Source: Roseibacillus sp. (GTDB lineage Bacteria; Verrucomicrobiota; Verrucomicrobiia; Verrucomicrobiales; Akkermansiaceae). Taken from it: a DNA stretch of 64,000 bases. Of this stretch, positions 39,947-55,700 are shown one piece after another. Numbering within the stretch: position 1 is the first letter of the stretch; each line of letters begins with the position of its first letter. The translations under genes and the position numbers were made by a program. Location of the stretch: the NCBI GenBank assembly GCA_051251855.1, contig JBPOGI010000007.1, positions 192,001 to 256,000 of the forward strand, in the 5' to 3' direction. The notes beneath the pieces are model-generated. The model was given only the letters and a program-made list of their open reading frames with translations. It was not told the DNA's origin and did not search any database.

Positions 39947-40984
39947 ATGCCTCGCCTATCTATTACCGAACTCAGCCAACAAGCTTCGGAAACACCCTTG
40001 AGCGCAACCTTTCACGCCCAATTAGCCAACCTTAGTGAAAAGGAGACCAAATCTGGCAAACCGTATTTGGAAGCAGGGATGGCGGATTCCACCGGGGCCT
40101 TCACCCTGAAGGCTTGGGCAGACCATCCTCTTTTTAAAGAACTTCAGACCCTCCCAATCGGCACTGGTCTTGAAATCAGCGGTAAATTCACCCGCAACCA
40201 GTGGGGCATGGACGGATCCCCTTGGAAATTCAGTCTCTTGGACGAGTCCGCCAACCAAGAACTCCTCGCCGGAGATCCCGCAACCTTGGAGCGACAGAAC
40301 AAGGACTATGCAGATATCGACTCATTCGTGTCTTCCCTCAAAGACCCCCGTCTCGCCGCCCTCTCTCGCCGCTTTCTCAACGTCTTTGGAGAACGATTTC
40401 GCCGCACCGCAGCCGCTCGCCGCAACCACCATGCGCGTCGAGGTGGTCTAGTCGAACACGTGGCACAGATGATGCGGTCAGCCAATGCTATTGTGGGAGT
40501 TTACCCAGCACTCAATCGAGACCTCATACTCACAGGCGTTCTTTTCCACGATTGCGGAAAGCTCTGGGAAAACTCATACCCCGAAAGCGGCTTTACTCAA
40601 CTTCACCAACTTTCCGGCGAGATGATGGGCCACATTCCTCTCGGGATTGAGCTCGCTAACAAGCTCTGGCGCGACCTGCTGCTCTCTCCTGAGGCCGAAG
40701 CTTGGACCGATCTTTCTCCCAGTTCCGAAACCGTGCGCATTCACCTCCTTCATCTCATCGCCTCCCACCACGGCACTCACGAATTCGGCTCCCCCACGCT
40801 GCCACGCACACCCGAGGCCTTCGCGTTGCACTATATCGACAACCTTGATGCAAAATACGAAATGCTCAAAGACGCCTACGCGGAAGCCAATGAAGTAGTC
40901 CCAGGAATCCTCGAACGCCGCTTTCCCCTTCCCTCGAATCTGGTCGTTCCTCTGCCTTCTTTTAAAGGCCAAGACTCGACCTAA
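39947..40984 (+). CDS. OB-fold + HD-domain protein, YhaM/Cbf1-like 3'-5' exoribonuclease
   Basis: TKSGKPYL..DSTG (OB fold); AA..NHHA..GGLVEH; FHDCGK; GHI; HLIASHHG..EFGSP..P.TPEA..LHYIDNLDA. Confidence 0.85.
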   Translation: MPRLSITELSQQASETPLSATFHAQLANLSEKETKSGKPYLEAGMADSTGAFTLKAWADHPLFKELQTLPIGTGLEISGKFTRNQWGMDGSPWKFSLLDESANQELLAGDPATLERQNKDYADIDSFVSSLKDPRLAALSRRFLNVFGERFRRTAAARRNHHARRGGLVEHVAQMMRSANAIVGVYPALNRDLILTGVLFHDCGKLWENSYPESGFTQLHQLSGEMMGHIPLGIELANKLWRDLLLSPEAEAWTDLSPSSETVRIHLLHLIASHHGTHEFGSPTLPRTPEAFALHYIDNLDAKYEMLKDAYAEANEVVPGILERRFPLPSNLVVPLPSFKGQDST

Positions 40985-41158: not shown

Positions 41159-41800
41159 GTGGTAAAACTCAAAATAGCTCCAGAATTCGCACCAGAAACT
41201 TCAGATTTATCTGAGCTTGATGACGCGACCCTCGTAGCTCAGTGCCAAGCTGAACTGCCCGATAACCTTACCGCTTATCGGGAGCTCGTAAAACGGTATG
41301 AGGGACTGATATTCAATACGTGCCGACGAGTGATCGGCTCTCAGGAAGACGCCGAAGAAGTTACTCAGGACACCCTTCTTCAGATCTTTCACAAGATACA
41401 TCAGTTCCAAGGACGCTCATCTTTTAAGACATGGCTGTATAAAATTGTGCACAATTACTGCCGTAACCGCATCTCTAAACTTGCAAGGAAACGTGAGGGC
41501 CAAAATTCTTACGAAGAACATGCCGCAAATGATGAGGACGATCGCGAGGCTAACAACCGACGCGCTGCGCTCTCTCAAGCCGTCGAGGAAGCCCTCGGCA
41601 AACTAAAAAAATCAGAGCGTGAGGTCATTGTGCTGAAGTTTATGTCCGGACTCACTCTGCAGGAAACTGCAGATGTTTTAGGCGTGAAGCTCAGTGCGGC
41701 CAAAATGCGACTTTATCGGTCTCTCGAGTCCTTTAAAGAAGCCTACTCACGAATTGATAACGCCCCCCCCGTCCCCAACTTCCATACCACAGATGACTGA
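41159..41800 (+). CDS. sigX: ECF sigma factor, SigX-like
   Basis: LDDATLVA..AYRELVKRY..FNTC.R..G...DAEEVTQ..FQGRSSFKTWLY.I..N.C; region 4 LSAAKMRLYR. Resembles Pseudomonas SigX as recalled, and has a cmpX-like neighbour. Confidence 0.75.
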   Translation: MVKLKIAPEFAPETSDLSELDDATLVAQCQAELPDNLTAYRELVKRYEGLIFNTCRRVIGSQEDAEEVTQDTLLQIFHKIHQFQGRSSFKTWLYKIVHNYCRNRISKLARKREGQNSYEEHAANDEDDREANNRRAALSQAVEEALGKLKKSEREVIVLKFMSGLTLQETADVLGVKLSAAKMRLYRSLESFKEAYSRIDNAPPVPNFHTTDD

Positions 41801-42044
41801 AGAAACATTCAACCCCGACGACTCCGTCTTCAACGACCTCTTTGCTGAGGCCGGCTGGAATGACGTTGCTAAGGCTCCCCCCAATGAGCGCAGAGTCGAA
41901 GAGATCACTCAACGTGCCATCTCCGAGACAATCGTCAAAGAGTCGAGCTCTTTCCTATTCCTAGGCTTCAGTTCTGCCCTTTCAGGGATTTTTGCAGCCT
42001 TCTTTGGCTGTATCAGCGACAACGACGAAGACTACAAACCTTGA
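41793..42044 (+). CDS. Small protein, CfrX/CrfX-like candidate anti-sigma partner
   Basis: 83 aa; start overlaps the sigma stop; acidic N-terminus and hydrophobic C-terminal helix; lies between sigma and cmpX-like genes. Confidence 0.6.
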   Translation: MTEETFNPDDSVFNDLFAEAGWNDVAKAPPNERRVEEITQRAISETIVKESSSFLFLGFSSALSGIFAAFFGCISDNDEDYKP

Positions 42045-42083
42045 TTTTCGCTGGCGACTCTCTCATTGTCGCCACGGAATATC

Positions 42084-43031
42084 ATGATCTTCGCGCAAAC
42101 TCCTCCGCCAACGAACCCTGCTGCCACTGAGTTGGTAGCGAAAACTGCCCAGACAATCCAAGGATCGGGTGAGCAAATCACCGACCCCCCCCCTGGATTT
42201 TCACTGAACTACATCTTTGAAAAACTCCGAGAAGCCTTTATTGAAATGGCTGACGGAGCGATCAGCGCCCTGCCCAATCTTGTCATTGCAGGCGTTCTCT
42301 TATTCGTCGGTCTCATTGCCGCCAAGGTCATCCGCGCCGTCCTCACCAGCACCTTCAAGAAAATCAATCTAGATAGTGCATTCGATAAGATGGGGCTCAC
42401 CGAGATTTTCTCCAAAATCGGTCTCAAGGCCGGCCCCAGCTCAGCAATCCCCAAGCTTCTCTACTGGCTCATCCTCCTCGCTTTCATTAAGGTAGCCGCC
42501 GACAAGGCCGGAATCGAAGACATCTCCACTCTCCTTGATCAAATCATGGCCTTCTTGCCCAAGGTGCTGACCGCCTCGATCATTCTTTTGGTAGGCTTCA
42601 TTGTTGCCGACTTGATTCAGAATGCAGCCTTCCGCTCGCTCGATAATATTGGGCTCGAATACGCAGGCAGCCTCTCTCGCATCCTTTTTGGCTTCATCTT
42701 CATTCTCGTTCTCACCGTTGCCTTTGCCCAATTAGGCATTGAGACCGAACTTCTCAACTCCTCTGTAAAGATCGTTCTAGCAGGTTTGGCCCTCGCACTT
42801 GCGATTGCGCTCGGCTTGGGATTGAAGACCCTTGCCGGTCACATCGTCGCAGGGGTCTATGCACGCGACCTCTACAAAATTGGAACCGAGATTCACTACG
42901 ACGACCTTCCGGCCAAGGTCTCTGGGGTAGGCCCCCTCACAACCAAGCTGACTCGGGACGATGGCACATTCGTGATTATTCCTAACACCATTATGGTCAA
43001 CGAAGTCATCCGCGGTCGCACCGAAAACTAA
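42084..43031 (+). CDS. cmpX: CmpX-like small-conductance mechanosensitive channel (TM_helix repeats + MscS domain)
   Basis: LPNLVIA..G..AK..R and FLPKVLTA..G repeats; QLGIET; ALAIALGLG; IVAGVYARDLYKIG. Confidence 0.8.
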   Translation: MIFAQTPPPTNPAATELVAKTAQTIQGSGEQITDPPPGFSLNYIFEKLREAFIEMADGAISALPNLVIAGVLLFVGLIAAKVIRAVLTSTFKKINLDSAFDKMGLTEIFSKIGLKAGPSSAIPKLLYWLILLAFIKVAADKAGIEDISTLLDQIMAFLPKVLTASIILLVGFIVADLIQNAAFRSLDNIGLEYAGSLSRILFGFIFILVLTVAFAQLGIETELLNSSVKIVLAGLALALAIALGLGLKTLAGHIVAGVYARDLYKIGTEIHYDDLPAKVSGVGPLTTKLTRDDGTFVIIPNTIMVNEVIRGRTEN

Positions 43032-43050: not shown

Positions 43051-43084
43051 AAACCGTGTGACTTATTCGCAGATCTGCGCGTCT
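43051..43084 (+). promoter_or_regulatory. ECF-type promoter, copy 1
   Basis: AAACCG-TGTGACTT(43057-64)-N16-GTCT(43081-84). Confidence 0.75.
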
Positions 43085-43090
43085 GTATGA

Positions 43091-43166
43091 GTGTCCCAGC
43101 AATGGGACGTGCGTTGTTGTTCCCACGAGCGGGGGTTGGTTTCGACCAGCCCTCGCTCACTTTTTT
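43091..43166 (+). ncRNA. Putative sibling sRNA, copy 1
   Basis: GTCCCA-GCAA-TGGGAC hairpin; GCGTTGTTGTTCCCAC; 14-bp TTCG-capped stem at 43127-43158; T6. Confidence 0.75.
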
Positions 43167-43197
43167 AAGACACGTGCTCTAGACGAAAGTTTCTTAG

Positions 43198-43231
43198 AAA
43201 CGCTGTGACTTTTTACCAGGGCCGTGTGTCT
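43198..43231 (+). promoter_or_regulatory. ECF-type promoter, copy 2
   Basis: AAACGC-TGTGACTT(43204-11)-N16-GTCT(43228-31). Confidence 0.75.
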
Positions 43232-43237
43232 ACATTC

Positions 43238-43336
43238 ACGTCCCAGAGATGGGGCATGTTATATCCCAGCAATGGGATGTGCGTTGTTGTTCCCACGAGC
43301 GGGGGTTGGTTTCGACCAGCCCTCGCTCACTTTTTT
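43238..43336 (+). ncRNA. Putative sibling sRNA, copy 2 (two GNRA hairpins)
   Basis: GTCCCA-GAGA-TGGGGC, then ATCCCA-GCAA-TGGGAT, the same 16-nt linker, stem at 43297-43328, T6. Confidence 0.75.
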
Positions 43337-43368
43337 CAAGATGCTTCCTTTTTACGCCGGCTGTCTAA

Positions 43369-43402
43369 AAACGGTGTGACTTATCCCAAGGTCTTCGTGT
43401 CT
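43369..43402 (+). promoter_or_regulatory. ECF-type promoter, copy 3
   Basis: AAACGG-TGTGACTT(43375-82)-N16-GTCT(43399-402). Confidence 0.75.
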
Positions 43403-43408
43403 CTAGTT

Positions 43409-43484
43409 ATGTCCCAGCAATGGGATGTGCGTTGTTGTTCCCACGAGCGGGAGTTGGTTTCGACCAGCTCTCGCTCATTTTTTT
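43409..43484 (+). ncRNA. Putative sibling sRNA, copy 3
   Basis: GTCCCA-GCAA-TGGGAT; same linker; stem at 43445-43476 with a G-C to A-U compensatory change; T7. Confidence 0.75.
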
Positions 43485-43783: not shown

Positions 43784-46700
43784 CTAGAATTGCGGCAAGG
43801 GATAGATGTGAGACCTCTTGTCATCTCCCGGCAAGACTTTCACCATCACTGCTCGATGTGATTCAATCAAGAGGTCCGCGTCACGGTTCAAGAGTTGCGA
43901 GTCGTTCAAATCCAACCAGTAGTTGTAGGGTCCAGCGTCGGCCAACATGTATCCTAAATACCCCGTCTTATATTCGGTGACACCCACCTCATCAACAACA
44001 CGGTCGCCTTTCCAGAACAGAAGCTCGGAACTCTTCGTTGGAGAAGCTCCGCCATCAAAACCAGCAGCCAAGGTAAGATCCCGGCCATTAGCTCCCGCCG
44101 GCGATTGGTCCAAAGGCCACATCGCCCCTGTGAGGTTGAAGCCTTCGTTCATGGGAGCCGCTTGGTCATAATCAGCAACCATTCCGAAAGTGAACTGCTC
44201 CACTGGAGGAATCGTCGCGGGAGCAAGCGCATCCCCAGAGCTCTTGGGATGAATCCAATTTCCCATCGAAGGATCCAGACGGAGGCCTCCCTGGTCAACT
44301 TGAGCGAAAGGATCAGTCACCCGAATCCATTTTGTATCGGGAGCCGTGCCAACCAACATCAAGGTTTCGAATCCAGGATCACTCTTTCGAACATCATAGA
44401 AGAGCAGTCGGGTCGCATCCGCTGGATTTGAGTCCTCTTCGCCGGCAAATGTCGTCGTCTTATCGAACACTTCATCGATGGTGCGATAGCGAATCACTTC
44501 GTAGCTTGCTCCATTAAGTCCACTATCGGTGGGCAAACCATCGAGAGTATTCAGGGAGGCCACTGCGGTGTCAAAAATATCACTATCGTTGAGAAGAGAG
44601 ATCGTTCCAATACCACCGCCCAGAATATCGAAGCGGTGTCCTTCAAAAAGACCGCTCGTAATCTGGAGATACTTTTCACCATTGCTTCCGACAACGGATG
44701 ACAAGTCCACGTTCCCTACTGAGTCGCTAACATCTAAGATGATGTCTCCGGTTTCAGAGTCTGTCGCAAGGGTGAGAACCCCACTACCGAAGGTACCACT
44801 CAACTCAGGCTTCTCTTTAAAGGGAGAACTAAAGCTGAGGCACTGATAGTCGCCAAACAGATTGCACTGCCAACCAAAGGTCCTACTGTAGAAGACTTCA
44901 TCTGGAGTAATGGTCTCACTGCCGTCGACATCGATCTCCACCTTCATTCGAACAACTCCATTCTGAGGAGTCACCGGTCCGGTGGAATTTTGAATATCGC
45001 TATAGATAACTTTCTCGGCCTCCACTGGAACATCAGCGTCCGTGATGTTCACAGTAGGCGTGATGTCAGACAAGTCACTCCACACAGTCGGGGTATCCAA
45101 GGTCGCAGCCCCTTGCAGGGTGTAAGTCACATCATTGAGACCACCACGACGACGCATGAACTGGGCAGTGACGCTTCCATCAGGAGCCTTGGTGAGACAG
45201 AACTCGCCGTGTCCGGGAAGTCCATCACCAGGGTTTAGGCAGAAGGCATACTCCAGAGCATTCGGATAGATATCTCCATCAGGATTGTCAGCCAAGCCAT
45301 CGTTGGTTCCGGGGTTTGAGGTGTGGTCCAGCGCACTATCGTTCGTGTCTTGGAACTCGGTATAAGTGCCGGACTTTGGAGAAGTGAAGCCAAAGTCATA
45401 ACTCGCGTTGGCTCCTTCTCCTGATGGATCGGCCTGCTGGTCGGTGGCGGTTTGACCCTGGATGGCAATAGCCGGCGCTCCCGCAGGGTCGTTGCTATCG
45501 GTCAAACTGGTGGCCGTTCCACTTTCGATCACAGTAGGCTCGGTTCCTGTCGGAGTTTGCACGGAGAGAACATAAGTCGGCTCTGCGCCTGCCCCGTCTC
45601 CATTGTAGTCCTCGTCCATGAGCAGATTGCCAAAGTCATAGTGACCTGTTGTGTCTGTTACATCAGTGAGAGAGACAACCGTTCCGTCCGGATAAGTGAT
45701 GGTCAAGGTGACCACCGCACCTTCGATGGCAGGTTCGCCACTCTCTTGCACACCATCATTGTTGCTGTCGAACCAGACGTAGTTTCCAATCGCAGCAGGA
45801 TCCTTGTAGTAGCCAAAGTCGGCGGTGTCATCGTCGGGATTTCCTGAGTCGATGGTCACAGGATAGCCGCCGTCCTCCTGACTGTTGCCATCGGTGCCAG
45901 GATTCGGTCCCACGCTATGCCAGTAACCGTCGAGTTCATTGCCGTCGTCCGTCACCACCACGATGTAGTCATCGAATGGAAGGCCATCGAAGAGATACTC
46001 CCCATTCGCGTCCGTAGTGGTTGTTCCAACCGCCGGATCACCTGAGTCCACAATCCCGTCGCCATCGATATCGCGATAGAGCACCACGGTGACGCCTTCG
46101 ATTCCAGCTTCGCCACCGTCGAGAACTCCGTCACCATCGACATCATTCCAAATGGTCGTTCCAATGCTTCCTCCGTCAGTCGAAACATAACCGAAGTCTT
46201 GGTCCACATTATCCGGTGCTCCACTGGTCAAAGTGACCTCGCTCTCTGAATCAAGTCCCCCATCGTTGTCGAAGGTATTATCAAGGGCTTCCAAGACGCC
46301 ACCCGGGTCAAAGTTGCTGTCAGCAATCTTCACCGTGTAGTCGGCGCCGGCAGCACCGCTGCCATCATCAAGAGGTAAACCTCCGAAGTAGTAGCTACCG
46401 TCAGGACCGGTCTCGGTCACTGCGATGAGCTCACCTTGTTCATCGTAGAGTTCGACCAACACCCCGGGGAGACCCGTATCGGACTCGTTCTGGTCAGCGC
46501 CCCCATCGGCATCCAGCCAGACGTAGTTGCCAATCGAACCGGTCTCGGCCGCAGGCTGGAATCCGAAGTCTTGAGCATCGTCATTCCGCGTCGTGGCATC
46601 GGTGGTGTCTAAGCTCAAGGTTGAGGAGTCATCCGTTCCACCATCGCTTCCGCTCTCAGTTGGAACCGGACTAAACTCTGGAGGCAAGGTCGAGGTATCG

Positions 46701-49700
46701 ACCTGCACCGTGTAGGAGATGCCCGAGTCAGGATCGAGGTTCGGGAAATTGTAGTTTCCATTCTCGTCCGTAACGGTGGTCCAAGTCTCGGTTCCATCGG
46801 TCAAAGTAACCGTCACTCCAGCCAAGCCAGGCTCATTCGCATCTTGGGTGCCGTCACCATCAAGATCAGCATAGATGGTGTCGCCAATGCTACCGACAGG
46901 TTCACCAACAGTCGCGGGAGGATAGCCGAAGTCTTGGTCGAGGTCGACCGGTGTTCCGCTGCTCACAGTCACCGAGCTGCTACTGTCTCCATCATTCTCT
47001 GGGTCTCCAGTTGGAGCCGCATCATAGCCATCTGGCAAGGTCGTGGTATCGACTTCTACGGTGTAATCTCCTAGAGGTAACTCTGGGAAGAGGTAGTTTC
47101 CGTTCGAATCCGTAACCGTGGTCGCAATCAGAATCGTGCCAGTCACATCGTAGAGATTGACCGTGATACCGGGAAGCCCCTGCTCGCCGGCGTTCTGGCT
47201 ACCATTGGAATCGTCGTCCGCCCAAATGGTATCGCCAATCGCGCCCAAGGTTCCATCAGCTGGGTAGCTAAAGTCTTGCGCTCGGTTATCCGGAGCGACA
47301 TCCGTGAGAAGCACCGGACTCGAGGAGTCGTTATTGCCATCACTATCGTGTGTCGCAGCGGTCTGATAACCAGCGGGAAGAGTCGCGGTATCGACTTCGA
47401 CTACGTAACCACCGAGTGGCAGCCCGTCAAAGAGGTAGTTCCCGTTCGAGTCGGTCACTGTAGTTGCGATGATGTCGTTAGCATCGACAGAACCGTCGCC
47501 ATTCACATCATCCGCGAGGCCATCACCATCGTCATCGGCATAAAGATTGACCACCACATCGGCGAGCCCAGGCTCGTTCCCTTGAGTGGACTGGTCGCCT
47601 CCGCTGCTATCGAGGTCTCCCCAAACGGTATCGCCAATGGAACCGAGGGCTTCACCTGAAGTGTAGCCAAAGTCCTGATCGTCTACGTCGGGAGTTCCCG
47701 CATCAATCGTAGTCGCGCTCAAGTTCGGAGTGCCTGCGACGCCATCGGCATCATAGGTTTGCTCAAGGCCACTTAAGACTCCATCAGTATCGTTCACCCA
47801 GACGATGTAGTCATCATAAGGCAAGTTATCGAAGATGTAGCTTCCATCGCTGGCAGTAGTGGTCGTGTTGATGATGGGCTCTCCCACATCCCAAACTCCG
47901 TCTCCATCGAGGTCATCGATCAAGCTCACCGTCACTCCGCCGATCCCTGGCTCACCCGCATCTTCTACCCCGTCTCCATTGAGGTCATTCCAAACGGTGT
48001 CGCCAATGCTTCCGAGAGGAGCAGTCACTTCCGGCTGATAGCCAAAGTCCCCATTGAGGAAGACATCTCCTGGAGCCAGCACGATAGGCTCGCTCTTACC
48101 ATCATTGGCAGAGAAAGCGGTATCCGTTTCTGCAAAGTGATCCGGATCTCCCGTCTGAAGGTAGTCGCTTCCCAGAATATCATGACTCGCAGTCGCGCTA
48201 TCGGTCACCTCAACGACATAGGCATCAGGAACCAAACCATCGAAGTAGTAGCGACCATTGCTATCGGTCGTCGTCGTGCCAACAAGGTTATCATAGACGC
48301 CATCACCATCATGATCATTGTAGAGGCTCACCTCAACACCCGCGACGGGCGCTTCGCCATCATCTTGAATGCCATCACCATCGGCATCGATCCAGATGAA
48401 GTCTCCCAGAGCCGCGACCTCCGCACCGGCAGTCGCCGTCGGGTCATTCACCTCACCCGCAGGATTGATGTTGTAACCAAAGTCCGCCGTAGAGTTGTCC
48501 ATCGGCTCAGTTCCACCCAGAAGCACTGGGTAGCCATAATCACCTGCACCGGGGTCATCGGAATCATCCTGATTGCCAAAGTCGCCACCCGAATTGGTGA
48601 AAGGGCTTTGGGTAAAGCCAGTGGGTAAGGTCGTCTCATCGACGTTCACATAATACTCCCCCGCAGGAAGGTCAGTGAAGAGGTATCCCCCATCGGCATC
48701 CGTGTAGGTAGTAGCCACCACGTTGCCGTCGCCGTCATAGAGGTCGACTTTCACATTCGCGAGACCCGGCTCACCATCATCCTGATAGCCGTTGCTGTCC
48801 TCATCATGCCAAATGTAGTTACCAATCGTTCCAACCGGAGGACCAATGAGTCCAAGGTCAAGGTCGGTATCGCTATCACCCGCTGCCAAAGTGACCGTCT
48901 GGGTACGACCCGTCATCACATCCGCATCACTGTCGGTGTTGGTATCGGCAACCGTATCATCGCCATCGGCGTTCTGCTCGGTAGGCCCGTATCCGTAAGG
49001 CAAGGTGCTGTAGTCAAATTCCACATAGTAGTCACCGGCCAAGAGGTCATCGAAGAGGTAGTTTCCTTGGGCATCGGTCGAAGTCACGCCAACCACCGTG
49101 TCGGTGGCCGCATCATAGACCCGCACAGTGACACCCGGAACTCCGGACTCGCCGGGATCCTGAAGGCCATTGCCGTTGCCATCAATCCAGACAAAGTCAC
49201 CTAGGGAGGCCAAGTCTTCACCAAAGTTGAAGTCCACTCCGCGCTCACCACCCGCAAGGGTGATTCCGGTAATGGTATCCGAACCTGCCGTCCCTTGGTC
49301 AGCAGTAGTGCTGCTGGGAGAAGCAGTGGTATCAACAAGGTCCCCTGCGTCCGTCGTGGTCGAGAACCATCCTTCAGGTTGCGTCTCGGTGACATCGTAA
49401 GTTCCAGGATTGATTCCCGCGAAGCTGTAGTTGCCATCGTCATCGGTGACGGTGGTCAGCTCAACAGCGTTCCCGAAGATATCGGTTCCAGTCAAAGTGA
49501 TGGTCACGCCAGGAATACCCGCCTCGGTGAGGTCGAGGTTTCCAAGATTGTCCGCACCGGCGTCGCCATCGGCACGGTCGTCATCGTGATAGACCGTTCC
49601 GCTCAAGCTCGCGAGTTGCTCTAGAATCACATCAACCTCTGCTGGGTCGCTGTTGTCGCCTAAGTCGGTCTCCGCACTAGTCGTTGCAATGTTCGCAATA

Positions 49701-52700
49701 TTGACCTGAGTCTTCTGCCAATTGGAAGTCATGTAGGCCTGGTCAACCGTGAAGGTCACGGTGACGGAACCAGTAGCTCCCGGCGTTAAGATTCCTGCGT
49801 TGTAACTAAAGTCATTGGCTGAGCCAAGTGTGCCCGGCGTTGCCGACTGAATCACCAGACCATCGGGCAAGGTATCCGAGATGACCACGTCCGCGGCATC
49901 GCCGTTACCATTGTTGCCATAAGTGATGGTGAAGGACCCACCTCCGTATAAGTCGACCACGGCGGTATCAGCCACCTTCTCAATCCAGACGTTAGCCAAG
50001 CCATTGGCATCGGTAATAACGGTCAGCGCGCTGTCATCGTTATTATCGTAATCGCTCTCCTGTCGATCGTTCGCAATCGTAACCACGTTGTTGAGGCTGT
50101 CGCCGGCCACGCCACCAGTTTCGGTGACCTGCACAGTAAAGCTTCCACTCGCTCCGGTCGCTTGGTCGCCGAGATTCCAAATCAAGGCCGTCAAACCACT
50201 GCCCTCGTAATCCGCATCTACAGTTGGTGAGCCACTCGAGCTCACGTAAGTCGTATTAGCGGGTAGAATATCGGTCACCACTGCGTTTAGCGCTCCCTGT
50301 GGTCCGAGGACCTCCCAAGCAATATCATAGTTGATGGTCTCGCTTGCTCCCTCTTTAACCGCTCCGGTGTCTACCAGCTTGCTCACAGCCAAGTCTGTTA
50401 GGCGCAGGTTGATGGAATCTTCCGCCGTATTATTGGCGGTGTTGTCATCGATCTCTGGGGTGCTCGTCGCAATTGAAATGGTGTTATCAATAGTGCTCTG
50501 ACCAACGGGCGCAGGATCGTCCACCATCACCTGGAAGGTGAAGCTAGGCACTTCTTCCACCACATAAGTCGCACGCCAAGAATTGAAGCAAGCCATCGCT
50601 GACTCATCGGTGCTGGTCATGGTCACCCGCAAAATCATTTCCGAATTTGCAATATCGATAGATGAGATATCAGCAAAACCGTCTTCGAGTTCGGCCGGAC
50701 CAAAGAGAGTCGTGGTGTCGGCTGCGTTTCTCAACTCAAACGTCGTCGTTACCGCATCGTCTGCTTCGACGCTGACAAGAAGTCGGTCCCATTTCGTCAA
50801 CGTTCCTGCGGCAACGACCGGATAGTCTTCAGTGACAATCGTCTCGTATGCTTCGAAACCTGAACGCAATTTCGCAACAATGACTCCTGGGCGAGTGGCA
50901 TCACTTCCTTGGCTCACTATTCCGAAAGTGGCAGTCGCGCCCCCCATACCATCGTAGACATAAGTTGGATTTGTGATTCCAGGTGAATAGTTCACCCCTG
51001 CGTTGAGCTGACTTCCGTAGAAGAGCTCCAGAATGCCGTCTCCATCGATGTCGTAGCTATTCATTCGCTGCCCACCATTTTGACCTTGGCGGAAGATGTA
51101 TCCATTTCCTTCGATGGGACTCAGCTTACAATACTCCCTCAGAGTGCCATCGGCATTGGGGTAGAAAATGTAGGTGGCTCCACGGTTGCTGGCATTTCCT
51201 GATGTGTTGACTGAAGAGGTAATATCATCATCGTTCGCCGCCGAGACCGCAAACTCACTCAGTCCATCGCCATCCAAATCGCCGACAGCCGCAACTCCGT
51301 ATCCGAAGTTATCATTGGCATCCAAAGCCAGAGCGGGAGTGGTTAGATTCGAAATCTTACTCACCTTTTTAAGTTCACCCGTAGTCTCGAGAAGAACGAT
51401 ATATGCCGCCCCTGTCGCAGTATATCCATCATCGTCACTCGAAGCTCCAACCACCAGGTCCTCCGCTCCGTTGCCATCCAAATCTCCAACAAAACTCAAA
51501 TCGAATCCGAACAAGTCGCCGGAATCCAAATAACCACTCAGTTCCGCACTACGAGCCGTCTGCATCTTGATAAAACTCGTAACATCTCCTGTCATGTGGC
51601 CATTGATGTCTCTTTCCAGCCAGAAGAAGTAGTATCCTCCCCGCGAAGAATCCAGGCTCACATCTCCTGCAACCAAGACGGAATCACCGCTACCGGCAAA
51701 GTCCTCAATGTAAGTGAGTCCTCGTCCAATTCCCACGGAACCCTGATCGTCAGCTCCGGTCACACCACTGGCGGTAACGAAGCCACCAGTTCCAGAAACT
51801 ATCTTCTTCAAGTCCTTCAACGATCCATCCGTATCTAGGAACAAGAGATAGACCGCGCCACGGCCCACGTTTCCAACATTCGTTCCATAGGCTCCAACCG
51901 CGAGATCAGGGATTCCATCGCCGTTCACATCGCCGATTGGCTCCAAGGAATATCCAAAATAGTCAAAGGCTGAGAGACCGGCCAAAAGACCACTCGCGGC
52001 AGCCGTTCCCTCCGCAATTTCAACGCTAGATTTCACGGAGCCATCAGCATTCATGAAGTTGATCAGAACGGCTCCTTGATTCACATTGACCAAGTCCATC
52101 TCATTGGATTCATCCAAATCACGGAACGGAGAACCGACTGCGTAATCAATCACGCCATCATTGTCGATATCACCCACGGCATGATAGGTGACTTGATGGG
52201 AGCGTGTGTGCGCTCGATCATCGGTAACATTGGGGATATCATTATCAACGTTTGTGTCAAAGGCGACGTGTTGATCGTAACCAGCATCGAGTGCGCTCAC
52301 TTCAGACAAAAATGACTCAACCTCCACTTTAGGCAGTGGTTCGAGACAAAGAACAGCGCCAGGGCTTCCTGCCGGCTCTTTTCTAACAAAGACCCGATGG
52401 ATGGTGTCCGCAGAATCATCACCCAATACATTGTCCAGTTCCCAGTCATCACCATTGGCACGAATGGCCCAGTTGGCTACACCATCCTGATAGAAAGGAA
52501 GTTCGGTGAGCGCATAGTCCCCCTCATCATCATTCTCCTCTGTCGCAAGGGCCGGAATATTCGCGGTATGGCCAGGCACACCAACCCAGTTTCCATCGTA
52601 ATGAAAGTGATTGAAGTCGCCTGTGCCAGTCTTCACATAATCATTGCCCCTCATGAAGTCATCGGTCGTCCGAATGTTTACCACTCGCTCATGATCGGAA

Positions 52701-55700
52701 GTCCGTCCTTGGAACAGCATCGTGTCAAAACCAAGGGCGGCAGCCAACCCATTGCCAGCATGACCCCAGTTCTCTGACGCGCTCTCGTCATCACCCAAGG
52801 CGTTGGAAGCAAAGAGCGGCAAGTCGTTCGTGCGCACTGCGAGTTCGGGATTGGTTCCTCCCGCATGCACGTAGTTGAGAATCATCAACCATCCACCACC
52901 ATCGGTATCACCATCGACGTATCCCTGGAAGGACTTACCATCAATATTGAACCAATAGACTCCGGTAGCCACCCCTCCGAGACCAGCAATGTCAGTGAAG
53001 GGATCATACTCAGTGCCCGTGCCAAATCCATTGCTACCAGCAAAGGTCGCGGGAGCGGGAAGATTGTCGAAGAGGATTTCGAACCCAGTGGGGTCAGAAG
53101 GATTGGGGCTCCAAATAGCAGTAGCACCATCAGGAACCATAAGAGAACCCGGAACGTAGCTGGTGCCCGCTGGAATGACTTCTGAAATCACCACATCGTC
53201 AGCGGCCGCTTTACCGGTGTTATTATACTCAATGGAGTAAGTGAGAACTTCTCCCGCTTCGGTCCAAGTCTCGTCTTGATCGGACTCATTGACCACGCTC
53301 TTGCCAATACTGATCTCAGGGCGATAGATGCGGGTGGAGACTTCGTCGGCATTGTTCGCAAGGAAATCTTCGGCGGGGTCGGCATCGGTTTGGTTATCGA
53401 CAACCAATGTCGTATTGTTCGTCACGGTATCACCATCAGCAGCAGCGTCAGAGACATAGCCCTGGAGGGTGAAGGTGACAATCGCTCCTACCGGCACTCC
53501 GATATTGCGATAGTAATCAGTATCAACGGCGTTAGCAGTGGTGCCGAGATACCAGGTCACGGTATCTCCTCCAGCGGGAGAGAGATTGTCCAAGGTCGCA
53601 CTAATCGGGAAAGTCACGGGAGATCCGGTTCCATCTTCCAGAGTCACACTCGCGCCATCATCATCGGTCGCCTCAACTGTTGCGAAACCATTGAAGGCAG
53701 TCGGATGCGGAACAAAATTGGCCGGCAGAACATCTTCCACCTTCACCCCGTAGGCAGTCTGAGTTCCAGTATTGGTCAGCTCAATGGTGTAGGTAATCGG
53801 GTCGCCAGGACGCAAACCGGGAACACTCCCCTCGGCACTAGCTGACTTCGCAATCGCCATATCCACTCCGGGAATTTGGGTCATCGCGGTGGCTGCATTG
53901 TTGTTTGGTCCATCGGTTGGATCCTCAGGGTCGTCACTCTCTTGAGCACTGGTGGAAATCGTAGCGGTATTGGTGTAAGCCGTTCCAGGAGCGGTGCCCC
54001 CCGGAATCGAAGTGCTCACCAGAATATCAGAATCACCGGCATTGGCAGGAACAGTTCCCACCTCAAAGGCAATGAAAGTGACAGTCGCTGTCGGGGTAGA
54101 ACTCCAACCGAGGCCAGAAGTCCCGGGCGTGAAGACCGGCGCGGCGGGGGCATCGGAATAGTAGGCTACCACTCCAGAAGGAAGAAGCACGCTATTGAAA
54201 GTCAGACCCGACGGAATGGCATCAATGATGTAAACATCAGGAGCTTCGTTATTCGTTCCATTGCTGTAAGAGATCGTCCAAACGACAGTCTCTCCAGCTT
54301 GGGCAACGCTCACTGCAGACTTGGTGATTTTAGGATCGGGGAATGGAAGCACCACTTCTTGCTCATCGGTGTTTCCATACTCGTTATCCTCCACATCAGA
54401 GGTTGTCACCTCTGCCACGTTCGTCAGAGTATCGCCTGCGGCACCTGAGACATCGACCTGATAACTGATGAAAACATCGGCAGACTGCCCAGGGAGAACT
54501 CCCATGGCACCGCCATCTTGGGTCAAAGAGGTCCAATTGAGAACACTATCACCCCCAGTAGGGTCATCTAAAATAGCATAGCCCGGTGTGAGCATCTGGG
54601 TGCTCCCTTCCACGAAGGTCATTCCCGCAGGCAAAGTGTCGGTGATGACCACGTCGTTGGCCTCATTCAGACCACGGTTAGCCACCAACAGAGTAAAGGT
54701 GATGCGATCTCCATTCTTGGGCTCGGTCGTGCTGGCAATTTTACTGAGGGTCAGGTCCGGGTTGGCCACGGTAACCGGATCACTATCGCTCACAACGACA
54801 GCAGAGCGTGCGTTCGAAGCAAATCCCTGCACGGTATTGAGAACCTCAGTGCCTGAAGCGGTGGTGGAAAGCGGAACCACAACGAAGCTAACACGCCCTC
54901 CCTCACCGGTGAGCAAATCGCTCTTCAGCCCAGGAGAACCAGCAATAAGAACTTCAACGATCGATGAGCCATCTGCGTTCGTAGTGATGGTAACATTAGG
55001 ATCAGCCTTGATATCAAGCTCACCGGCGGTCTGACCATTCGCAATCGCAACGTCATTCCACTCATGCCGAACTCGGCGAAGAGTAACATCCTTAGGAAGA
55101 TAGTCGGTAATGGTGACAATATCATCGGTGAAGCCCGAGTTGTTAATATAGTCCACATTCCAAATGAAGCGCTCACCCGCAGTAACGAGTTCCTTGTTGC
55201 TAGACTTGGAAATTTGAAGACCAGGGAAAGATTCAACCGTGGTGCGCACCTCATTGCCGACAGCCTGCAAGTTGGTGTCGGAGAAGATGACGAGCTCGTT
55301 GAAAATCACGGTGCCCTCAGGAGAGCCATCGGTTCCCACCGTTGTGCCGTTGTCATCATTGACCACGGTGAAAGTCACGGTCTTGTAGGCAGCCGAGACA
55401 TCAAGCTGAGGAGGCGAAAGAGTCGGGTCGTCTACCTTATAGGCAATCCAAGTTGTTTGGTCGCCGAAGGGACTTGTCCAAGTATCGTCAGATGGATCAC
55501 TTGGCGTGCCATTGTCATCCTGAACACCAGGAGTGAAGTTTGCACTAATCACGCTGAAATCGACCGGATTGAGAACACTGATTTGGTTAGCCGGCATCGA
55601 AGGTGGCAACTTATCAGTGAACCAGATTTCCTCGCCATTAGGCGCAGTCGCTTCTGAGAAAGTCGTGCGGAAGGGAATGCGATCCACCACCCAAGAATTG

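Follow-up and report, generated by a model that had tools for sequence, protein, structure and literature searches.

A predicted family of ECF-driven sibling small RNAs next to a SigX-like sigma factor operon in Verrucomicrobia

The window (the whole 64,000-nucleotide stretch of Roseibacillus sp. DNA analysed here) contains a SigX/ECF102-like sigma factor operon and, behind its last gene, an array of three near-identical intergenic units. The relevant features are as follows, with RNA starts placed by their spacing from the -10 box.

39947..40984, plus strand: YhaM-like 3'-5' exoribonuclease gene (OB and HD domains; Pfam HD), a conserved upstream neighbour
41159..41800, plus strand: SigX/ECF102-like ECF sigma factor gene, the candidate cognate sigma
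41793..42044, plus strand: gene for an 83-aa protein with a hydrophobic C-terminal segment, conserved in syntenic loci
42066..43031, plus strand: CmpX-like mechanosensitive-channel-family membrane protein gene (PF05552 MS_channel_1st_1, two stretches)
43057-43064 and 43081-43084, plus strand: unit 1 promoter motif, -35 box TGTGACTT and -10 box GTCT
43091..43166, plus strand: predicted unit 1 RNA, ~76 nt (5' hairpin 43093-43108, core 43109-43126, terminator stem 43127-43158, U6)
43204..43231, plus strand: unit 2 promoter motif (-35 box 43204-43211, -10 box 43228-43231)
43238..43336, plus strand: predicted unit 2 RNA, ~99 nt (5' hairpins 43240-43255 and 43263-43278, core 43279-43296, terminator stem 43297-43328, U6)
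43375..43402, plus strand: unit 3 promoter motif (-35 box 43375-43382, -10 box 43399-43402)
43409..43484, plus strand: predicted unit 3 RNA, ~76 nt (5' hairpin 43411-43426, core 43427-43444, terminator stem 43445-43476, U7)

Among 102 NCBIfam families, the window sigma was best matched by PRK09640 SigX at 146 bits (below the cut-off of 194; the next family reached 108 bits), and it is the sole SigX-like gene in its genome (G000), where the other ECF sigma factors are 27-31% identical to it. It shares 86-90% identity with Roseibacillus proteins, and its next relatives are from Akkermansiaceae. The neighbourhood features of ECF102 are present, given that a cmpX mechanosensitive-channel gene and a small gene adjoin the sigma gene. 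The product of the small gene (83 aa) matched no Pfam or NCBIfam family and has unnamed Atlas neighbours; its CfrX-like position makes it a candidate anti-sigma factor. Upstream, the YhaM-like gene scored 130 bits against NCBIfam YhaM, under the cut-off of 460, and is syntenic in many loci. Some genomes of the genus have another SigX-like paralogue, 42-48% identical and lacking cmpX (L118 in G005, L180 in G001, and G008:C25), which is absent from the window genome. When 201 genomes of the phylum were searched for the SigX family, only the window genome matched, so that no outgroup loci were obtained, and a search for CmpX in plasmids came back empty. On the other side of the array, a gene for a 4,896-aa secreted repeat-rich protein (43784-58474, minus strand) is convergent toward it, with a GTGAC-N19-TCT site ~270 nt upstream of its called start.

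A sequence-only reading of this DNA had described three units of rigid layout, each with an ECF-type promoter and a terminator, and a single regular expression, AAAC-NN-TGTGACTT-N16-GTCT-N8-GTCCCA, indeed matched the window at exactly three positions (43051, 43198 and 43369), with GC, GT and GT where GY had been described before GTCT. The invariant core of all three units is GUGCGUUGUUGUU. The 16-mer reported as invariant lies at 43111, 43281 and 43429 and has no other exact site in the 4.96-Mb genome; tolerating up to two mismatches added two sites, both without hairpins or promoter, while strict TGTGACTT-N15..17-GTCT occurred four times in the genome, three of them in the array. All three terminators were present as described, each a 14-pair stem with a 4-nt UUCG loop, followed by U6, U6 and U7, as were the compensatory changes: G-C to A-U in the copy-3 terminator, and a G-C, A-U and G.U series at the base of the GCAA hairpin, in which the A-U pair of copy 2 sits in its second hairpin. 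Folding z-scores of units 1-3 were -5.6, -5.9 and -5.4, with none of 200 shuffles equally stable. The RNA bodies are identical at 64-66 of 68 positions. The 16-nt promoter spacers, said to have diverged at fixed spacing, are fixed in length but not random in sequence, with 8, 10 and 8 of 16 positions identical. Conserved RNA bodies next to diverged spacers point to duplication, followed by selection or conversion acting on the RNA and the two promoter boxes.

Searches by several routes recovered homologues within one family of Verrucomicrobia (40 units in 31 genomes of eight genera overall, plus two metagenome contigs). BLASTN found the unit in six of the eight genomes of the genus and in one other genus (60 relatives searched), and the core, at one mismatch or fewer, stood behind cmpX in 13 of the 29 scorable loci (out of 30), with one further variant recognised by eye. 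A promoter-plus-core pattern was matched in 23 of 401 family genomes, compared with two reversed-control matches. A covariance model of the promoter, hairpin and core, a check proposed in the sequence-only reading, found homologues of the same promoter-hairpin-core-stem layout in 25 of 150 family genomes (7 genera), and gave no matches in 113 genomes from seven other families of the order. The metagenome scan returned two true units among 16 matches. A looser GGG-N3..7-core pattern, run over 401 genomes of the order, was rejected, as its 11 matches outside the genus were chance hits without hairpins. The units had been called an unrecognised family, and neither the window nor any of 15 homologous loci had an Rfam match at the gathering threshold; the best in Rfam 15 was ctRNA_pGA1 at 24.5 bits (threshold 45), on the terminator only. 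In the parts of the literature available to us no Verrucomicrobia sRNA of this kind is described, and RNA-motif surveys that report only in supplements could still list one. Most carriers have one copy, and arrays are found in G000 (3), G008 (4), G417 (2) and G418 (2), spanning three genera. The arrays have separate origins in at least three genera, and the three-copy array of the window is a local expansion of a usually single gene.

The stems covary across homologues. In a two-hairpin alignment of 15 units, 94.3% of cells were paired and 10 of 20 pairs varied on both sides, while none of 500 shuffles reached this pairing level and slid registers gave 32-52%. Over 26 units, the 5' hairpin had 98.5% of cells paired, with one pair being U-A in 13 units and C-G in 11. 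Loops vary (GCAA, UUCG, GAAA and others), and the U tail is not invariant either: a stem of at least 11 bp was present in 38 of 38 units, directly followed by at least four consecutive U in 18 of 38, based on an automatic pick that overshoots in some. Some lineages have an additional hairpin before or after the core, and two 5' hairpins, as in unit 2, recur in the G418 and G422 homologues. Within the core, C-G-T-T-G-T-T-G-T-T was invariant in the 15 units found by BLAST and synteny; we relied on these units because alignment A3 and model R2 were built from a pattern requiring GTGAC and the core, which makes the invariance of those letters in A3 circular. Mean unpaired probability in 38 trimmed units was 0.67 for the core versus 0.26 for the rest (a core value of 0.48 with long downstream flanks is an underestimate). 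We regard it as very likely that the units are real, independent non-coding RNA genes.

Complements of the core were over-represented at translation starts of the window genome, for which gene starts came from a simple purpose-made gene caller and are approximate. Start regions have no AGGA/GGAG peak; AAC peaks at -20..-11, where AACAAC is also three-fold enriched. Perfect 10-mer matches to the core complement were found at -30..+3 in 7 of 3695 genes compared with 0.7 expected (0 of 319 dinucleotide shuffles), and in two genes in each of two control windows, nine combinations of length and window having been tried. Five of the seven genes have signal-peptide-like starts. The excess persisted under Markov backgrounds up to order 4, with 7 versus 1.2 expected at order 4 (0 of 40 simulations), and under an order-5 background the excess of 8- and 9-mers fades (reached by 8 and 6 of 40 simulations, respectively). 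Among the candidate targets are an RND efflux operon (with each of its three genes), a YqiJ/YqiK-like pair, a TAT substrate and large surface proteins. Candidate start regions lie at C1:456507 (RND), C7:266058 (YqiK-like), C10:187346 (lipoprotein) and C8:122794. G-U pairs dominated when all starts were ranked by duplex energy, and that ranking was not used.

Across genomes, the density of core complement followed by ATG was equal in RNA-lacking and RNA-bearing genomes (0.26 per Mb in 34 genomes vs 0.27 per Mb in 24), so the enrichment at starts may only reflect starts that are generally rich in AAC; real starts accounted for 2 of 10 inspected non-self sites in RNA-bearing and 2 of 18 in RNA-lacking genomes (28 sites in all). 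Conservation of individual sites was weak: those of the RND operon were mostly lost in four relatives, the lipoprotein site was not kept in two relatives, the top duplex candidate (an ADH-like gene) had no orthologue in 34 genomes, and the flotillin-like YqiK site retained at least 8 nt in four of six relatives. Given the negative cross-genome test and this weak conservation, pairing is plausible and the best bet, yet no target is established. We consider it likely that the RNA would act as a base-pairing repressor, and it probably dampens the translation of other genes during envelope stress.

A different role for the exposed core would be that of a protein decoy, bound by an RNA-binding protein or nuclease (a KhpA/B-type protein or the YhaM-like exonuclease, for example), with additional copies raising titration. 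A 13-nt core that is invariant across genera with differing mRNA start regions would suit such a role, as would the failure to find a conserved mRNA partner. So would the set of RNA-binding proteins in the window genome (95% complete), where Hfq (PF17209), CsrA (PF02599) and ProQ genes were not found, control families were detected, and a KhpA/B-type gene is present; in G005, moreover, the RNA directly follows the YhaM-like gene. Each RNA nevertheless bears a single motif, unlike the repeated motif-in-loop layout of CsrB/RsmZ, and it is precisely at translation starts that the core complement is over-represented, which leaves titration an unlikely explanation compared with base-pairing repression.

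The promoter of the units could be defined more closely from homologues. GTGAC is followed after 19 nt (20 in three units) by TCT(A/T), with ~8 nt to the hairpin, and the promoter is therefore better written as GTGAC-N19-TCT(A/T) than in the longer form seen in the window. In line with the ECF-type promoter originally claimed, units found by core and synteny alone, without use of the motif, carried strict GTGAC-N19/20-TCT at its fixed distance in 14 of 17 cases and GTGAC in place in 16 of 17; overall, the strict promoter was present in 33 of 40 units. Intergenic GTGAC-N19-TCT occurred 32 times in the window genome, versus 8-21 times for other spacers. Compared with a reversed control, the pattern was matched 56 vs 27 times in 29 cmpX-positive genomes and 25 vs 35 times in 34 cmpX-negative genomes.

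Presence of the RNA was also associated with that of the sigma operon. The RNA was present in 19 of 30 cmpX-positive and 6 of 120 cmpX-negative genomes, a comparison which assumes that both evenly drawn samples coincide, and whose Fisher values are overstated because kin are not independent. Among the 11 cmpX-positive genomes in which the model detected no RNA, synteny revealed diverged versions in two. In genus g15, the RNA and sigX-cmpX occur in the same 7 of 15 genomes, unlinked in two of them. In G459 (L223), a decayed module, the SigX-like gene carries a frameshift and the locus has neither cmpX nor the RNA. The promoter has drifted in four of the six cmpX-negative carriers (G423, G455, G034 and G339), to TTGAC without TCT in G423 and G455, where cmpX was lost.

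The motif also precedes other genes: it was upstream of a YeaQ/transglycosylase-associated gene in 5 of 12 scorable homologous loci and of a small lipoprotein gene in three of three. In the window genome, these two genes (C10:188423-188745 and C10:187128-187417, respectively; L125) flank tilS, each with the motif. The former would be nearly leaderless from its motif, and the latter is entericidin-like by eye with no Pfam match. At L041:5877-6000, in another Verrucomicrobiales lineage, a SigX-like gene and a small gene are immediately followed by the motif, after which comes intergenic sequence that is structured but unrelated and may be a second SigX-driven sRNA of a different kind. At L076:2449-2560 (G467), a strict motif behind cmpX precedes an A-rich non-coding stretch without the core. 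The motif is upstream of the SigX-like paralogue of G005 and absent from the paralogue locus of G001. No such promoter was found upstream of the window sigma itself, which fits the lack of autoregulatory motifs reported for ECF102 in the sources as far as these were available. On the evidence of motif and co-occurrence, we think it quite probable that the SigX-like protein would be the sigma factor reading the unit promoters.

Were the promoter instead read by another, more widespread ECF sigma factor, such as that at C10:179060 in the window genome, the position behind sigX-cmpX would be historical. The motif does lie ~350-450 nt upstream of that sigma gene (C10:178682-181013, L125, encodes this ECF sigma and a partner with a vWA/YfbK domain, with hairpin-rich sequence between motif and gene). 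In addition, the RNA persists in three g11 genomes where no SigX-like gene was found (best identity 24-29%), one of them, G018, with a strict promoter; at these loci (L111, L112 and L113) the RNA has argB on one side and a convergent TonB-dependent-receptor-like gene on the other. A TGTGAC -35 element is also predicted for an unrelated group, ECF118, in the available part of the ECF reclassification paper (PMC7826278). Recognition by another sigma factor is nonetheless rather improbable in our judgement, since the RNA co-occurs with sigX-cmpX even where the two are unlinked, promoters drift in most carriers without cmpX, and the motif is found directly behind SigX-like genes with different downstream sequence (L041 and L076) and upstream of the G005 paralogue, albeit not at the G001 paralogue locus.

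Unit 1 begins 26 nt past the cmpX stop with no terminator in between, so its terminator would end the sigX-cmpX mRNA too, and most homologues lie 80-300 nt behind cmpX. Both observations would be expected if the unit were a cis element, that is, a conserved 3' end of the sigX-cmpX mRNA (a terminator, stability or processing signal) duplicated by slippage. Yet every copy has its own promoter motif at fixed spacing, 15 of the 29 scorable cmpX loci end without a unit, and in 11 genomes the unit is located away from sigX-cmpX with its promoter retained (in three of these upstream of leuC), which argues for an independent gene and makes a cis-acting role very improbable. Least probable of all is a small-peptide gene, toxin-antitoxin repeat or mobile repeat: an ATG in the 5' hairpin opens a frame through the core in most Roseibacillus-type units, but in several units it stops after 2-8 codons or is shifted and others lack it, neither strand has a reading frame conserved across the units compared, the core has no synonymous variation, units of 18 genomes have no conserved ATG-started antisense frame, the three copies per 4.96 Mb sit at a single locus rather than being dispersed as a REP/MITE repeat would be, and none of 26 viral pattern matches is a true unit.

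Our proposed explanation, in which independent RNA genes, a SigX-like sigma factor and base-pairing repression are combined, starts from the conservation of sequence, structure and promoter, the co-occurrence and the complementarity observed here, and predicts transcription, a cognate sigma, pairing, repression and a stress signal. By analogy with P. aeruginosa SigX, membrane or mechanical stress sensed through the small protein and CmpX would release the SigX/ECF102-like sigma, which would recognise GTGAC-N19-TCT and start an RNA of 75-100 nt from each unit. The 5' hairpin and 3' terminator stem may shield the ends and present single-stranded GUGCGUUGUUGUU as a seed, able to pair with the AAC-rich elements just upstream of start codons that in this genome seem to replace a Shine-Dalgarno peak. 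Such pairing would lower the translation of mostly exported and membrane proteins without Hfq, tandem copies would provide higher dosage, and the SigX-like response would in this way possess a repressor arm made of non-coding RNA. On balance we favour this explanation as a whole, if by a modest degree, and interpret the units as a new, Hfq-independent, ECF-driven family of sibling sRNAs with predicted transcription and candidate targets. A broader version is put forward tentatively and with some doubt: in Verrucomicrobia, a mechanosensing-linked SigX/ECF102 pathway might possess a dedicated Hfq-independent sRNA arm that silences AAC-rich start elements, on which this Shine-Dalgarno-poor lineage would rely for exported proteins, with dosage set by tandem expansion and GTGAC-N19-TCT as the promoter of the sigma group in this lineage.

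Should this sigma group use GTGAC-N19-TCT as its promoter in the lineage, its regulon would become predictable and would include the YeaQ-type membrane protein, the small lipoprotein and the RNA. The motif would supply a promoter for SigX/ECF102-like sigma factors, for which the ECF reclassification paper, in the part available, found none conserved (PMC7826278). Charting of regulatory RNAs has barely begun in the PVC superphylum, and the window genome is without detectable Hfq, ProQ or CsrA. An sRNA family that is conserved, supported by its structure and equipped with a defined promoter offers a handle on base-pairing regulation in this superphylum.

Sibling sRNAs are known from PrrF1/F2, OmrA/B, LhrC1-5, CcsR and Qrr, where near-identical copies, in some cases arranged in tandem, have separate promoters and terminators. 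The units described here share this arrangement, each near-identical and with its own promoter and terminator, and differ from these systems in that we found no sequence relation and that most carriers have a single copy. Unlike decoys of the CsrB/RsmZ type, they have no GGA loops in the folds of the window units, with no CsrA (PF02599) found, and unlike the type I toxin-antitoxin arrays Sib/Ibs and Rdl/Ldr, no conserved small ORF on the opposite strand. GcvB is longer, Hfq-dependent and GcvA/sigma70-controlled, targets amino-acid transporters, and has a G/U-rich region R1. According to the part of the source available, R1 silences ACA/CA-rich translational enhancers (PMC3879156). The units resemble R1 in their G/U-rich single-stranded seed, complementary to A/C-rich elements before start codons, and differ from GcvB in having no Rfam match.

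The sigmaE-dependent sRNAs (RybB, MicA and MicL of enterobacteria, and FoxI and FoxJ of Fusobacterium nucleatum) similarly combine an ECF-type promoter, a short RNA, and a seed with a terminator, and the predicted repression of envelope-protein mRNAs is a further likeness. RybB and MicA, like GcvB, are of the Hfq-dependent type, for which the window genome gave no Hfq match. FoxI in particular is described, in the portion of the paper available, as an ECF-driven repressor of envelope mRNAs that works without Hfq, and the -10 box of its sigma factor, GTCWAA, resembles the GTCT(A/T) of the units (PMC9546586). Unlike the sigmaE-dependent sRNAs, with which there is no sequence match, the units have a -35 box of GTGAC rather than AAC, an internal seed behind a 5' hairpin, a copy number of 1-4, and an array linked to a SigX/ECF102-like sigma and cmpX.

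A genomic parallel is the sigX locus of P. aeruginosa (cfrX-cmpX-sigX-oprF), which likewise unites a SigX-like sigma, a small gene and cmpX; in the window the order is sigX, small gene, cmpX, and then the RNA in place of the oprF porin gene. As far as the sources were available, SigX defines ECF102, with cmpX and the small cfrX kept nearby and no conserved predicted promoter, and the group is listed for Bacteroidetes and Gammaproteobacteria only (PMC7826278); a precise definition of the SigX consensus is said to be lacking (PMC7641640), and SigX homologues are described as regulating nearby cmpX and oprF genes (bioRxiv 10.1101/2020.06.23.168245). The available parts of the SigX/ECF102 literature (PMC7826278, PMC7641640) make no mention of a SigX-driven sRNA. 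The class, an ECF sigma factor with repressor sRNAs in sibling copies, is known, while the RNA family, its lineage and the link to a SigX/ECF102-like sigma factor appear to be new.
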